Sequence record: PQ850623.1
Source: Escherichia phage RudolfBernhard_Bas96
DNA: 64,000 nucleotides
Reading direction: 5' to 3' (one strand)
The notes beneath the pieces are model-generated. The model was not told where the DNA came from and did no database searches. It saw nothing but the letters and a program-made list of their open reading frames with translations. The position numbers and the translations under genes are program-made. Positions 2,990 through 58,022 of the stretch are shown piece by piece; positions within the stretch are counted from its first letter, which is position 1; every line of letters begins with the position of its first letter.

Positions 2990-5922
2990 ACGCACATACC
3001 CCCTTCGATGCAAAACAGGATTGGACCAATCCTTACTGCCAGAACAGTTCCAATGACCCAATGGTAGATGCACTACTAGGTAATGCTTATCATGTGGTTC
3101 GTACTGTCTACTGTAACTTGGGTAACCTGAAGCTTATCTACGACTTCCTGAACCAGTATGGGATGGTTCTTGGTGTACAGTCTGAAGCAGAACTTAAGGC
3201 GTTAACTACTGAAGCTAAGTATGCACGCATCTATGGTTTCTCCCGTGTAGGTGACCGTCAGGTTACAGACTACCTGTACGTGGAAGGTGATCGTACAGGC
3301 ATTCTACCCAACGACACCACTGCAACAGGCTCATGGATTACTGTTGCTACTTCTGGTGCAGGTGATGGCAGTGGTGGTATTTCCTCTGGGGGAGGTGCAT
3401 ACATTCCTTGGGTATACAGCAACGGTTCTGCTACTGGTGGGGAAACTTCCATTAACGTACCGGATGGGACAGTAGGTGTACCATTCATTATTGTTAATGG
3501 TGATATGCAGTATGTAGGACGAGGCTTTGAGTTTAACGTAGACGATCTGTCCGTAACTCTGGCTCAACCTCTGGAAGAAGGTGATGAAGTAGTATTCCTA
3601 CTGACTGGGGTTCCTGCTGTACCGGACAACCCTAATGTTAATGACTGGATTCAGATTAATTGGTTATATAACAATGGTGTTGCTGTAGGTGGTGAGCAGG
3701 TTATTGCTATTCCATACACTTTCCAGTCTATTCCAGCCGTGTATAAGAATGGGCTTCGTTTGTATAAAGGATTAACCACTGAATCATATACTGCTGACCC
3801 GGATAACCAGCGTATCCTTCTTACTGAGACACTGGCAACCAATGACCGATTGATTGTACAGCTTGGTGGTGAAGCACGGGTATTGGAAGCAGCAGACCAT
3901 ACTCTTCAGGAAGTTGCTCGTGCAGCTAACGTTAAGGATAGTGAGGTAATTCTTAGTACAGATAGTACCCAGTTCCTGAATGACAAGAGGGTTGTTTATT
4001 CTGTTAGTGAACAGAAGGCATATGGTTTGCCTGTATTACCAACAAATGTATACATTCAGTCCGTTAGTGACGGTAAGTTAACATACTCCCCCGGTAACAT
4101 TACGGTTGATTTACTTCCGTTACCAGAATCTGCTACTAGTTTAAAAAATAAATTTGCAGAAGAAAATGGTGCAGGGCTAGTTGGTACAACATCCGGCAGG
4201 ACCGTACAGGAAGAGTTTGACTACCGCAAAACTCAAGCGGAAAAAACAGAGATAAACATACTTGACTACCTTCCGGATAACGTGATCGCGGCGCTAAACG
4301 ATGTTAATGCATCAATGGCTCTAGGAAGCGTAAGGACATACATCGAACAGGCTTTGGCGGTAGCAACGAGCGAGAATATCGGTACTGGGGTTACTTTACG
4401 TTTCCCGGCTGGGTTCTTTTGGCTTGATTCTACTCTTAACCTTCCTAAAAGGACGCGTATTGTTGGAGTCTACCCAGAAACATACTTTATGGCACTCCCC
4501 AACTTTACCGGCACTAACGTAATTGCTGGCTCCACGGGACCAGCTATAGTCGCTATTGATAACTCAGGGCAAGACCCATTTTATATCGAAGGTTTTCAGA
4601 TAAACGCAGATGGTTCCCAGCCGAATGTGGTTGGGCTGCACATTGGCGGCTGCCGTAATTCCGTCGTCCGTCGGATATCTGTATCGGGGACCTTCGATGC
4701 TGCTGTTGTTATCCACCCTAAAAACGCAACATCTGGGGACGTGGAGAACCTGGAATTAAGCCACGTATGGACATTAGGTGGTGGGCTTGTGCTCAGGACT
4801 AATACAGATATCGACCGTGGAAATTTAACAGGTCTGTCATTCCGGGATTGTATGTTTTTCAGCACAATCGACAACAACCCTTCATGGGCGACGTCCGGTA
4901 ACCCATCCATCAGATTCTCATGTCATACTGACAGACAGATTTTTTCATGTACATTCGACCGCGTTGGTTGGGCTAGTCGTGCGACATACGCTATTTACTC
5001 AGAAAGTCTTGCAGGAAATAGCGAGGCAGATGTAAAAGGTTTCCGTGATATCCATTTCTCTGATTTCGCCGGAGAATCTCACAACGCTGACGGCTCGCTA
5101 ACATCAGACTGTACGTATGCCCTACTTACGAAGATGCGGAATAGCACATTTACTAACATCCAACGCTCTGGCGCCGTGACCCGTGGGGGTATCATTATGG
5201 ATGGGTGCGAATATGTGACCTTCAACTCAGTGTCTTTTGCAGATCCCAATATTAGCACTGGAACAACTGCCCCACGGTGCGTATATCAAAACTCTACTAA
5301 TAGATTTAACCGTTTTATCAATTGTGACTTAACAGATGCTACTGGTAGTATGTTTGATTTAGATGGTTGGACCATAGCTAACAGTGTGATGTACTACTTT
5401 AAGGGCCTGTTCTGGGATGACAGTGGGACTAGTATCTGGGAATGTGAACAAATGTCTAGCACTCCTGGCGTTATGTTCGCAAGAAGTACATTAAACCAAA
5501 ATAACGGGTCGGCCTTCCCTCAACAGTCTGGGGTTACAATGCTAACTTCAGGCGACGACCTTCAAGTTACTTTTGCAAGAGACACCACTACTAAAACCTT
5601 TACAATACCTATTACTACATCTTCTGGTGTATTTAATAACCATGACAGGGTGTATGTGGCATTTAGACATCAGTTCCTTAGCTATGGAACCAATACTGTA
5701 GTGAAAATAGGGATTGGAGGTAAGTATGTTACAATCAGTCCTCAATCGGGAACTGATTATTTTGCGGTGGTTAGTAGAGCACGTTCTTTGGCAACATCAT
5801 TTGATATCCAAGTCACTTATAGTGGCGCTTCGGAAGATTGCATTATTCTTATTAGAGATTTAATTGTATCAAATAAAATGCCGTGGCTCCCTAACTTCAC
5901 CAAAGTCTTACTTTGCGATTAA
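2986..5922 (+). CDS. Tailspike/tail fibre protein with N-terminal particle-binding region and C-terminal beta-helix-like region
   Basis: 978 aa; ATGA start/stop overlap with upstream gene at 2986-2989; Gly/Ser/Thr/Asn-rich C-terminal half with repeated N-x-G / S-x-G turns typical of right-handed beta-helix tailspikes. Confidence 0.5.
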   Translation: MNAHTPFDAKQDWTNPYCQNSSNDPMVDALLGNAYHVVRTVYCNLGNLKLIYDFLNQYGMVLGVQSEAELKALTTEAKYARIYGFSRVGDRQVTDYLYVEGDRTGILPNDTTATGSWITVATSGAGDGSGGISSGGGAYIPWVYSNGSATGGETSINVPDGTVGVPFIIVNGDMQYVGRGFEFNVDDLSVTLAQPLEEGDEVVFLLTGVPAVPDNPNVNDWIQINWLYNNGVAVGGEQVIAIPYTFQSIPAVYKNGLRLYKGLTTESYTADPDNQRILLTETLATNDRLIVQLGGEARVLEAADHTLQEVARAANVKDSEVILSTDSTQFLNDKRVVYSVSEQKAYGLPVLPTNVYIQSVSDGKLTYSPGNITVDLLPLPESATSLKNKFAEENGAGLVGTTSGRTVQEEFDYRKTQAEKTEINILDYLPDNVIAALNDVNASMALGSVRTYIEQALAVATSENIGTGVTLRFPAGFFWLDSTLNLPKRTRIVGVYPETYFMALPNFTGTNVIAGSTGPAIVAIDNSGQDPFYIEGFQINADGSQPNVVGLHIGGCRNSVVRRISVSGTFDAAVVIHPKNATSGDVENLELSHVWTLGGGLVLRTNTDIDRGNLTGLSFRDCMFFSTIDNNPSWATSGNPSIRFSCHTDRQIFSCTFDRVGWASRATYAIYSESLAGNSEADVKGFRDIHFSDFAGESHNADGSLTSDCTYALLTKMRNSTFTNIQRSGAVTRGGIIMDGCEYVTFNSVSFADPNISTGTTAPRCVYQNSTNRFNRFINCDLTDATGSMFDLDGWTIANSVMYYFKGLFWDDSGTSIWECEQMSSTPGVMFARSTLNQNNGSAFPQQSGVTMLTSGDDLQVTFARDTTTKTFTIPITTSSGVFNNHDRVYVAFRHQFLSYGTNTVVKIGIGGKYVTISPQSGTDYFAVVSRARSLATSFDIQVTYSGASEDCIILIRDLIVSNKMPWLPNFTKVLLCD

Positions 5923-21677: not shown

Positions 21678-21738
21678 AACTGGCTTACTGTAGAGTAAGT
21701 TACCTATATACGATATAAGTTTGAACAGGAAACATGCT

Positions 21739-34326: not shown

Positions 34327-34413
34327 GGTGTCCACTACTGGATTTGAACCAGTGACCCCAGACACCTTGTTCTCTCGAAGCTTTCCTGTGCTCTACCACT
34401 GAGCTAAGTGGAC
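34327..34413 (-). tRNA. tRNA-like gene; canonical acceptor, D and T arms but non-canonical expanded anticodon region; anticodon not assigned
   Basis: Minus-strand read: acceptor GTCCACT / AGTGGAC (7 bp), D-arm GCTC-AGTGGTA-GAGC, T-arm ACTGG-TTCAAAT-CCAGT, discriminator A; the 36 nt between D and T arms contain no 5-7-5 anticodon hairpin. Confidence 0.45.
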
Positions 34414-38379: not shown

Positions 38380-38823
38380 TTAAGCGTAGTATTCAGCCAG
38401 ATGGTCTAAGAGTTTTTGGGCATCATTGTCGATATAAGTCTGAGATTTATCGAACATACCCATCGGTGAACGAAGTCGTTTACCAACAGACTTCTTGGTT
38501 GGACGAGTCTGGAATACGTGCTTATAGCCTAAGTCACGTTCTTCTTCCGTAATATCAAGCATCTTGTTGCCATACTTTTCCAGTTCTTTGATGTCTACAC
38601 GTTCTGCGTAAACCACTGTAGAGAAGTAAGCCTCAAGGCCATTGTTCTTCAGTGAACCCTTAACTGGGATGAATGTTTTCATCACACCAGCAGCTTCGTC
38701 GAGTTCATCTTTGGCATGGGCAGTAATAATTACTGGCTTACCAAACTTAACGACTTTCTGTTGCAGCAGTATTTTAAAGAACTGCGCAAAGTCTCCCCAC
38801 GATACGTTCAAGAGTGTACGCAA
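38380..38823 (-). CDS. Hypothetical protein
   Basis: 147-aa ORF. Confidence 0.35.
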   Translation of the reverse strand: MRTLLNVSWGDFAQFFKILLQQKVVKFGKPVIITAHAKDELDEAAGVMKTFIPVKGSLKNNGLEAYFSTVVYAERVDIKELEKYGNKMLDITEEERDLGYKHVFQTRPTKKSVGKRLRSPMGMFDKSQTYIDNDAQKLLDHLAEYYA

Positions 38824-38968
38824 CTACACTCCCAGCAGCATTACCTGCATCTGCATGTTTCCATGCAGTCCAGACTATATCTTCATCCTCGTTAATTACG
38901 ATAGGATGCTGACCGCTTCGAGCAGCATTAGCTTCTGCCCTACTCCATTACTGGATAGTCGTTGCACC

Positions 38969-39460
38969 TTACTTAATCTTTTGTATAGCATGGGGTAAGC
39001 CATGCTCAATGATATAGGCATTTCTCGCTTCCAGAGCTTCAACCTCGGAATCAAAATTACCTACAAAGATTCTTTCATTACCATTGCAGATTCTTGCTGA
39101 CCATTTTTTCTTAGTGGTATTTAAACCTATTCCTAAGTAGGTAGCTTTACTGGTTATTCTTTTTCTGGAATTAATGGCCTGAGTTGTTCTAGTTGCCCAT
39201 CTCAGATTTCCTGGTACATACCCCAGTGAACCATCTATTCTGTCTAAAGTAAGACCCAGCCTTTCCCTGTCTGCATAACCATCTAATGACTCTAGATAGG
39301 CAGCAAACACTTTGAAGTCAGAGAACTCTTCTGCTCTAGTTATCCCCCTAGCCCCATAGTTTTTATAACTAGCGTGCTTAGGGTTGTCACATCTCTGTTT
39401 AATGGTTAACCATGTGTAATACAGAGGATGTAATTCATTACCGAATCTTTTCTTACTCAT
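38969..39460 (-). CDS. HNH-like endonuclease with AP2-like DNA-binding domain (possibly degenerate HNH: DRID in place of DHID)
   Basis: LTLDRIDGSLGYVPGNLRWATRTTQAINSR (HNH_3-like) followed by an AP2-like segment YLGIGLNTTKKKWSARI...FVGNFDSEVEA. Confidence 0.45.
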   Translation of the reverse strand: MSKKRFGNELHPLYYTWLTIKQRCDNPKHASYKNYGARGITRAEEFSDFKVFAAYLESLDGYADRERLGLTLDRIDGSLGYVPGNLRWATRTTQAINSRKRITSKATYLGIGLNTTKKKWSARICNGNERIFVGNFDSEVEALEARNAYIIEHGLPHAIQKIK

Positions 39461-39592
39461 GTTTGTAACTCCGTTAATAAAAACCGGAGAAAGATTAAGT
39501 CTTGGCTCAGGATTGCCCTCGTCTTTACGTTAGGGGTTTCCCTGAATTCAATCAGTTATCATTAATCATTACTGACTAACGGGCCTTAGTAG

Positions 39593-39928
39593 TTAAGCCT
39601 TTTGGGTATTAGCAGATGGCAATACATATTGGGATTCCAGCATGTCCATCATAAAGGTAGCAGAGTCGATAATGATACCATCAACATCATCTGCCATTTC
39701 ACCACCAGGTGATGCAACATCAAATGCTTCCCAAATCTGGTATGGGTCTTCAATGTTGTAAGTATTGAACTTGTTACGGAAAGGCAGACGTTTACCTGCT
39801 TCAGTATTCAGATAGAGCCAGCGTTCCTGGTTCCGGATATTACGCAGTGATGCTGATTTACCACTCGCTGAGAATCCTGCGATCAGGATTAGCTGAGTGT
39901 TCATATCATTGGAGATTTCTTCGGACAT
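39593..39928 (-). CDS. Small P-loop-containing protein
   Basis: Walker A-like AGFSASGKSAS in a 111-aa ORF. Confidence 0.3.
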   Translation of the reverse strand: MSEEISNDMNTQLILIAGFSASGKSASLRNIRNQERWLYLNTEAGKRLPFRNKFNTYNIEDPYQIWEAFDVASPGGEMADDVDGIIIDSATFMMDMLESQYVLPSANTQKA

Positions 39929-57259: not shown

Positions 57260-57472
57260 TTACTCATCTAAAGCTTTACGAACGTAACCACGTACTGAAC
57301 GATAGCTTTCTTTTGCAGTTACAGTTCGTCCATCAATGAGATGAATTACAGCACCAGCCGGAGTTTCATCTACATCTACTACGTTAGTTGCAACAATAGT
57401 TTTACGCTGGGTACTGTCAACAGGAGTTACTTGAAATACAGACATGTTGTTTCCTTTAGGCATTTCTGCCAT
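57260..57472 (-). CDS. Small hypothetical protein
   Basis: 70-aa ORF. Confidence 0.3.
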   Translation of the reverse strand: MAEMPKGNNMSVFQVTPVDSTQRKTIVATNVVDVDETPAGAVIHLIDGRTVTAKESYRSVRGYVRKALDE

Positions 57473-58022
57473 GGTTGGGGTTATAACCGAAAAGTATTTC
57501 GGCTTCTTTTCTTGTGGCTACTGCGTCATCTAACTCAGCAAACCATCCCAGGTGGATTTTATTCCCATTATCATAAATGGAAACATTCCATAAATTATGA
57601 CGTTTACTATAGCTTACTCCGTGGTAACCACTTGTATTATTCGAGCTTAATGCCCTATTTTTTAAGTTATCTGACCTTGACCGGCTAAATAAATTAAAAT
57701 GCCTGTTATTAGTGCGTACACCATCATCATGGTCTATATCTTCTGGCTCAGTACCATGAAGCATTTTCCAGATAATACGGTGAGCATAGTAAAACTCACC
57801 ATTTAATGTTCCGCGCAAATAACCATTTTTAGATAATGAGGCTAGTGCAGGTTTCCCTGCCCATGCAGAATTCCATACATTAGCTACATGTTCTGGACTT
57901 CTTAGTGGGTTGCTGTTAAATGTCCACTCTGGTCTTACCTTCCAGGTTAATCCCCCAGTTAGTGGGTCATAATCTAAGCAAGCTAGTAACAACAAGCGAT
58001 TTGGTAAAACCTTTGCTTTCAT
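57456..58022 (-). CDS. HNH homing endonuclease with AP2 DNA-binding domain
   Basis: HNH_3-like YAHRIIWKMLHG...IDHDDGVRTNNRHFNL and AP2-like SGYHGVSYSKRHNLWNVSIYDNGNKIHLGWFAELDDAVATRKEAE. Confidence 0.6.
   Translation of the reverse strand: MKAKVLPNRLLLLACLDYDPLTGGLTWKVRPEWTFNSNPLRSPEHVANVWNSAWAGKPALASLSKNGYLRGTLNGEFYYAHRIIWKMLHGTEPEDIDHDDGVRTNNRHFNLFSRSRSDNLKNRALSSNNTSGYHGVSYSKRHNLWNVSIYDNGNKIHLGWFAELDDAVATRKEAEILFGYNPNHGRNA

Follow-up and report, generated by a model that had tools for sequence, protein, structure and literature searches.

An intron-borne gene of a G7C-like coliphage belongs to an HNH-AP2-like family with arginine at the apparent position of the catalytic histidine

Escherichia phage RudolfBernhard_Bas96 (PQ850623.1) carries an open reading frame of 163 aa with an ATG start (39460..38969, minus strand) in the 64,000-nt stretch analyzed here, referred to as the window. 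The predicted protein combines an atypical HNH-like N-terminal domain with an AP2 domain, begins with MSKKRFGNELHPLYYTW and contains the stretch LTLDRIDGSLGYVPGNLRWATRTTQAINSR, within which the motif LTLDRID…NLRWAT…Q..N is found. An earlier note on this DNA read the motif as DRID instead of DHID, and this reading is correct: Arg74 is encoded by AGA at 39241..39239. The note took the gene for an inactivated homing endonuclease or one repurposed as a DNA-binding protein. The locus raises the question of whether the arginine marks damage to a nuclease gene, a protein that only binds DNA, or a family of nucleases in which the histidine is regularly missing.

Among the profile sets searched, only PHROG recognized the ORF (phrog_374 'HNH endonuclease', E 3.8e-39). 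A Pfam scan of the single ORF sequence returned no family at E <= 0.1, neither HNH_3 (PF13392) nor AP2 (PF00847), and an NCBIfam scan of the ORF gave no match; some relatives of the protein do match PF00847. A single-sequence PDB search produced a marginal AP2 match alone. No second DR-motif gene was found in the window by a regular-expression and phmmer scan. The other HNH/AP2 gene of the window, counted as the first by the earlier note, encodes 188 aa (58022..57456, minus strand) and is a canonical Pfam HNH_3 member (E 1.7e-12, 47.2 bits) with the motif IDHDDG...NNRHFNL and a tail weakly similar to AP2. Database searching gave 113 relatives, many of them from contigs of 70-80 kb, and the gene is presumably a free-standing homing endonuclease gene. 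The window belongs to a G7C-like Gamaleyavirus (N4-like) coliphage, the region being 97.3% identical to SP5M, 96.3% to PhAPEC7 and 94.5% to PW8. An ORF of 3605 aa (21721-32538, plus strand) is as long as an N4-type virion RNA polymerase should be and lies where one would be expected, which confirms that the window is N4-like; a tRNA gene is present at 34329-34413 (minus strand; Rfam RF00005, 54.4 bits).

The 163-aa ORF is located, as the earlier note did not recognize, within a group I intron of 796 nt (39595..38800, minus strand), which is of IA type with P7.1/P7.2 and is delimited by its exact insertion relative to phage G7C, by Rfam matches and by covariation. The intron interrupts a gene for an AAA_24/Sak4-like ATPase resembling N4 gp44. 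Exon 1 (39596..39928, minus strand) encodes aa 1-111, which tblastn shows to be 100% identical to the same residues of G7C gp44, and has a weak Pfam AAA_16 match. Exon 2 (38380..38799, minus strand) begins UGG GGA GAC (W G D) and encodes aa 112-250 plus the stop codon; it is 99.3% identical to G7C gp44 aa 111-250 and matches Pfam AAA_24 at E 2.8e-4. The gene is split between Ala111 and Trp112, and the joined exons encode 250 aa that are 99-100% identical to G7C gp44. At the junction G7C reads ...CAGAAAGCC|TGGGGAGAC, whereas the window reads ...CAAAAGGCU|UAAC...UAUCG|UGGGGAGAC; its spliced-exon sequence would be CAAAAGGCT|TGGGGAGAC. The splice borders are ...GGCU|UAAC...AAGGCC and ...UAUCG|UGG. 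Splicing after transcription would restore the 250-aa ATPase.

The ribozyme is divided by the ORF into two parts. The 5' half (39493..39595, minus strand), assigned by manual folding and pair counts, contains the P1 guide, P2, the 5' strand of P3 (CUGAUUG), P4-P5-P5a, and the 5' strands of P6 and P6a. The intron starts with UAACUACUAAGGCC, in which P1 is formed between GGCC of the internal guide and GGCU of the exon, and the U that ends exon 1 forms the U·G pair at the splice site. P2 (UUAGUCA-GUAA-UGAUUAA) is followed by P3 (CUGAUUG/CGGUCAG), P4 (UCAGGG/UCCUGA), P5 and P5a. The 3' half (38800..38968, minus strand), placed by the Rfam alignment and our own covariance model, contains the 3' strand of P6, P7, P7.1, P7.2, the 3' strand of P3, P8, J8/7 (GAAGAUAUAGUC), P9, P9.1, P9.2 and the terminal G at 38800. 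P6 pairs GCC with GGU, P6a CUUAAUC with GAUUAAG, and P7 GACUA with UAGUC. The ORF lies in the P6a loop, and its last codons (38978..38972, GAUUAAG) double as the 3' strand of P6a. This arrangement resembles that of the T4 td intron, also of subgroup IA, in which the I-TevI ORF is looped from a peripheral helix, the ORF end overlaps the ribozyme structure, and the ribosome-binding site is in a hairpin; I-TevI, however, is a GIY-YIG enzyme, unlike the HNH-like protein of the window. A minimum free energy fold places the Shine-Dalgarno sequence of the ORF (GGAG, 39472..39469, 8 nt upstream of the ATG) in a hairpin, CUCCG-N11-CGGAG (39469..39489, minus strand), which is statistically unremarkable (z = -1.18), and the fold gives only a faint hint that translation of the ORF may be controlled through it.

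The proposed intron structure was evaluated on an alignment of eight ORF-deleted ribozymes from eight loci, comprising 73 proposed pairs. Paired nucleotides occupied 93.4% of cells, as compared with 34-41% when the partners were slid by 1-3 columns, and two-sided changes were present in 36 of the 73 pairs versus 4-11 in the slid controls; none of 500 shuffles attained these figures. Compensatory changes were seen in P1, P2, P3, P6, P7, P7.1, P7.2, P8, P9, P9.1 and P9.2, those in P1 being AGCU/GGCU in the L003 locus and GCGU/GCGC in the L091 locus. In E-value mode, Rfam RF00028 (Intron_gpI) matched the 3' half at 48.4 bits (E 5.7e-11) and the 5' half at 32.3 bits (E 3.9e-6). A scan at the gathering threshold (50 bits) missed the intron, the better half reaching 48.4, because the 492-nt ORF splits the model. 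Our covariance model of the 3' half scored 131.5 bits at 38850..38968 and 64.9 bits on an ORF-free intron of the metagenomic contig L014 that Rfam scores at 86.5 bits. Over 30-60 nt, the P4-P6 core is 88-100% identical to introns of several other groups of phages, among them Twort-like Staphylococcus phages and Bacillus, Ralstonia, Rhizobium and Vibrio phages.

Five records, representing three G7C-like phages, carry the intron at one exact site. G7C and about 60 related records are exactly without it, with contiguous flanks and a single gene for a 250-aa AAA family ATPase, the homologue of N4 gp44. The same layout of primase, exon 1, ORF, exon 2 and SSB was found in six metagenomic N4-like contigs, in which gp44 is only 46-70% identical and the ORF 43-73% identical to those of the window. 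Five of these six have the intron between the same two codons. In the sixth, L091 (1831/2651), it is displaced downstream by one nucleotide and interrupts the Trp codon (exon GCG U | GG GGU); P1 is now GCGU/GCGC, with compensatory changes in P3 and P7. Three of the last seven nucleotides of exon 1 in the window differ synonymously from G7C (CAA AAG GCU vs CAG AAA GCC), and two of these differences create P1 pairing. Comparison around the insertion site with G7C alone (39577-39596 and 38785-38799) also gave GCG vs GCA at +15. Such clustered synonymous differences are consistent with co-conversion, or with selection for P1 pairing and target immunity.

The intron is already flagged in one GenBank record, that of PhAPEC7 (NC_024790), but is not annotated in the SP5M and PW8 records. 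At 96.3% nucleotide identity, PhAPEC7 has the same intron at the same site; gp48, the ATPase, is given as a joined CDS and gp49 as 'encoded in putative intron', annotated as a 'restriction endonuclease' and with no RNA structure. The two copies differ in that the PhAPEC7 ORF (970-1461 of locus L093, minus strand) is ended by W88stop (TGG to TAG), whereas that of the window is intact. The PhAPEC7 copy also has D76G and four other replacements, with A95T and E144K among the changes, and the ribozyme is kept. It reads as a decaying homing endonuclease gene in a retained intron, an expected stage of the life cycle of such elements. Between the window and SP5M the ORF has 17 nucleotide changes and 2 amino acid changes, between the window and PW8 22 and 2, and about 90% of the changes among the three are synonymous, a pattern indicating purifying selection on the ORF. 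Two other insertions of about 800 bp with homing-nuclease ORFs in essential genes have been described in the same phage group, in g16 (spliced) and in g39 of a related G7C-like phage (not spliced) (bioRxiv 10.1101/542787). They reside in other host genes and no Rfam match was reported for them, in contrast to the E 5.7e-11 match and covariation found here; the gp44 intron is not mentioned in that report (bioRxiv 10.1101/542787).

Relatives of the ORF occur in settings other than this intron. In Vibrio phage 1.097.O (MG592470; 2283-3474 of locus L005) a 45% identical homologue of 157 aa is free-standing and shares 14 nt with the 3' end of an AAA_24 gene that is intact and encodes 243 aa. Elsewhere the intron resides in this same gene, which suggests either homing without an intron or a precursor state. 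The idea that the wider family is generally intron-borne was rejected: our ribozyme model of the 3' half matched only L014 among 80 IMG/VR loci, and at the gathering threshold Rfam found group I introns in 1 of 40 of these loci (again L014), beside the ORF and not around it, at a threshold below which ORF-split introns can fall. Most family members appear to be free-standing, and the N4-like clade is the intron-borne branch. On L014, a 42.8-kb IMG/VR contig, ORF-less group I introns at 1445-1694 and 4967-5202 (86.5 and 56.7 bits) flank a free-standing member at 2501-2914, which may be an endonuclease that serves nearby introns.

The position of Arg74 relative to known HNH enzymes was located with a family profile built from 95 homologues and searched against PDB sequences. 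The profile aligned with I-HmuI, the nickase of phage SPO1 (1u3e), with a weak E-value of 0.19. In this alignment DxxD..N..NLRW.T...N..N faces TLDRID..Y..NLRWAT...Q..N, such that D73-R74 correspond to D74-H75, N85 to N87, Q94 to the metal ligand N96, and N97 to N99. Both proteins are encoded by phage group I introns. They differ at His75 (here Arg74) and ligand Asn96 (here Gln94), in the N-terminal domain, which is a β-sheet in I-HmuI and helical here, and at the C-terminus, which is helix-turn-helix in I-HmuI and AP2 here. A full-length family profile aligned by hhalign with the HNH_3 protein of the window was mainly AP2-driven and shifted the HNH register; it was discarded and the alignment was redone with N-domain-only profiles. 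With the 113 homologues of gene 58022..57456 as the HNH_3 target, the N-domain profile-profile alignment gave the same register as I-HmuI, TLDRID..Y...NLRWAT...Q..N against IDHing..N...NLr..t...N..N, albeit weakly (E 0.013, probability only 3%). The two alignments are short and weak but agree in placing Arg74 at the position equivalent to the catalytic His, as the earlier note had supposed.

In the AlphaFold2 model (pLDDT 93.1), helices within aa 14-68 are followed by β 71-74, β 86-89 and helix 91-96/97, and then by the three-strand-plus-helix AP2 fold. DSSP assigns a β-β-α unit, at pLDDT >90, to the very segment containing the motif (aa 71-99, TLDRIDGSLGYVPGNLRWATRTTQAINSR, 39164..39250, minus strand), in which D73, R74, Y81, N85, Q94 and N97 are located. 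The HNH_3-like scaffold proposed earlier holds for this 29-residue motif; it does not extend to the 70 N-terminal residues, which are helical and unlike I-HmuI, and Pfam HNH_3 does not match. In a Foldseek search with a separate N-domain model, HNH nucleases ranked first at non-significant values (PacI best at E 0.46, then Gme HNH and colicins E9/E7; E 0.46-9.5). The AP2-like region noted earlier is borne out by both profile and structure: the AP2/ERF-type DNA-binding domain, three strands and a helix by DSSP, spans aa ~100-156 (38993..39163, minus strand). The family profile matched WRI1 (7wq5, E 4.8e-9) and TEM1 (E 3.4e-4) over aa 99-156, and Foldseek matched 7et5, 7wq5 and 1gcc with probability 1.00, the full model returning AP2 structures only.

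The arginine is not peculiar to the window. The ORF has 348 database matches, at least 590 IMG/VR stretches match the family, and tblastn matches, some of them confined to the AP2 domain, occur in 1199 phage records. Two alignments, of 95 and 115 homologues (34-95% identity), show R23, Y35, G36, G39, R74, Y81, N85, Q94 and N97 as invariant columns, with Arg74 present in 115/115 sequences; D73 is present in 94/95. Among the best 120 matches the motif reads DRID in 79, DRIN in 24, DRKD in 2, DRVD in 2 and ERKD in 1, and the regular expression missed the other 12. In 83 ORFs sampled independently from 80 IMG/VR loci, which were found with patterns that did not include R74, N97 or R23, the residues R74, Y81, N85, N97 and R23 are each present in 83/83, D73 in 80/83, and Q94 in 71/83 with Asn in the remaining 12. 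Relative to the HNH metal and structural positions, and as judged by alignment, D73 and the structural Asn (N85) are kept, Gln94 stands in for the ligand Asn, which is itself present in 12/83, and N97 does not vary. Since the arginine is invariant both across homologues and across independent metagenomic ORFs, it does not represent a one-off inactivating mutation. The missing histidine is instead what defines this very abundant family of phage genes, and not damage.

The closest described relatives are the IPA-HNH genes of Vibrio phage ICP1 (gp59, gp115/116 and gp209), which join AP2 to an HNH-like domain so divergent that Pfam HNH_3 does not detect it, lie near essential genes (Barth et al. 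2023, PMC10448857), and are reported to be mostly free-standing (PMC10448857). The window protein shares with them an HNH-like N-terminal domain missed by Pfam, a C-terminal AP2 domain and a location in or beside essential replication genes. An hhalign comparison of the family profile with gp59, the sole founder compared, gave a probability of 97% and E 9.7e-11 over 118 columns. ICP1 gp59 differs in having LDKD (Lys), 272 aa and a free-standing position after the DNA polymerase gene, as opposed to LDRID, 163 aa and an intron location in the window. PhAPEC7, G7C and N4-like phages are absent from the supplements of that study (PMC10448857). The gene is an intron-encoded member of this known, biochemically uncharacterized class of atypical HNH-AP2 homing endonuclease genes.

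Presence or absence at a fixed site in a conserved gene, spread over diverged hosts, and decaying copies, the marks by which homing endonuclease genes are recognized, were all found for this element. The reading that we favor, with reasonable though not high confidence, is that the ORF is the homing endonuclease gene of a mobile group I intron in the gp44-like AAA_24/Sak4-like ATPase gene of a G7C-like phage, and belongs to an atypical HNH-AP2 family, related to the ICP1 IPA-HNH genes, in which the canonical His is always Arg. From the pattern of conserved residues, the protein is most likely an active metal-dependent homing nuclease or nickase, with a Tyr/Arg pair in place of the histidine. 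The AP2 domain and the helical N-terminal region would bind the conserved intron-less gp44 sequence (the G7C junction given above), and the β-β-α unit would hold one divalent metal through D73 and Q94, together with N97. A break or nick near the insertion site would then be repaired from an intron-bearing genome, copying in the intron and its ORF.

HNH enzymes coordinate a single metal through Asp and Asn and use a His to activate water, a role that falls to a Tyr in PacI (PMC4081073, PMC3384342). Because the histidine is absent here, activation of water by a tyrosine is proposed: the invariant Y81 or Y35 would probably act, helped by Arg74 or Arg23, comparable to proposals for PacI and GIY-YIG enzymes. 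R.PacI (3ldy) resembles the window protein in being a β-β-α-metal nuclease without a His base, with a Tyr and with its metal on Asp and Asn (PMC4081073), and it is the best N-domain Foldseek match (TM 0.45) at the non-significant E-value given above. It differs in being a Zn-bound homodimeric restriction enzyme with no AP2 domain, and the resemblance is without evidence of common descent. Somewhat more speculative, and to our minds slightly less than an even bet, is the extension to the DR-motif family as a whole: these thousands of phage genes may encode a distinct His-less variant of the His-Me finger, in which Tyr81 or Tyr35 is activated by Arg74 or Arg23 and the metal is carried on Asp73 and Gln94, which would amount to GIY-YIG- or PacI-like chemistry on an HNH scaffold. 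In the papers searched, no nuclease assay was found for any DR-motif member.

The main rival to an active nuclease is a family of catalytically dead His-Me fingers that serve only as sequence-specific DNA binders, be it as a repressor, as a helper in splicing or targeting, or as a partner directing another nuclease, with the intron spread by recombination or by a nuclease supplied in trans. We regard this as unlikely, at perhaps the level of a serious minority view. The general-base histidine is missing in every member, and the same genome contains a canonical HNH_3 gene. There are also precedents: on repeated occasions AP2 domains derived from homing endonucleases have been recruited for DNA binding (PMC10448857; bioRxiv 10.64898/2026.02.23.707548), and the SMAD MH1 domain is a devolved β-β-α fold that has lost catalysis and kept DNA binding (PMC3384342). 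The acidic and amide residues nevertheless disfavor such a binder, as D73, N85, Q94 (or Asn) and N97 are conserved and coincide exactly with the residues of HNH enzymes that bind metal or have a structural role, and a conserved Asp facing DNA would be unexpected in a protein that does nothing but bind. Site-specific presence and absence together with horizontal spread is moreover typical of homing endonuclease genes, and the His is dispensable in PacI.

A second alternative is that the register adopted here is wrong and the protein is a standard HNH enzyme with its catalytic His elsewhere. Both motif alignments are statistically weak, and histidines are fairly common at two positions, H11 (62/95) and H29 (49/95). 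No His column in the family alignments, however, reaches 90% conservation; the earlier note had named a catalytic His elsewhere in the motif as the finding that would overturn its reading, and no conserved family His was found. In addition, two independent profile alignments give the same register, and the β-β-α unit assigned by DSSP coincides with the motif. We consider a displaced histidine very improbable. Least probable of all, and scarcely credible, is that the window copy is a canonical HNH homing endonuclease recently inactivated by a His to Arg mutation and now decaying: the motif is otherwise HNH_3-like and a decaying copy is known in PhAPEC7, but this reading is contradicted by an arginine shared with all aligned relatives down to about 33% identity, by the largely synonymous changes among the window, SP5M and PW8, and by an N-terminal domain unlike that of HNH_3 proteins. 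The earlier suggestion that the gene may be inactivated is accordingly rejected, given the family-wide arginine, the purifying selection on the ORF and an element that behaves as a live mobile intron.

The results correct the annotation of this locus in related phages. In SP5M both ATPase halves are unjoined and labeled 'hypothetical protein', and in PW8 exon 1 is labeled 'Sak4-like ssDNA annealing protein' and exon 2 is unannotated. Together the two halves make up a single gp44 gene split by the intron, whose mobility gene is the intervening 'HNH endonuclease'. The missing histidine poses the concrete biochemical question of whether members of the family cleave DNA at all and, if so, by what mechanism. 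Among G7C-like phages, matched genomes with and without the intron are available, the insertion site is exactly defined and PhAPEC7 provides a natural nonsense mutant, so that homing and catalysis are directly testable. If the family does represent a His-less catalytic variant, the intron copy of the window would offer a convenient natural system for testing it, one whose target site is known.
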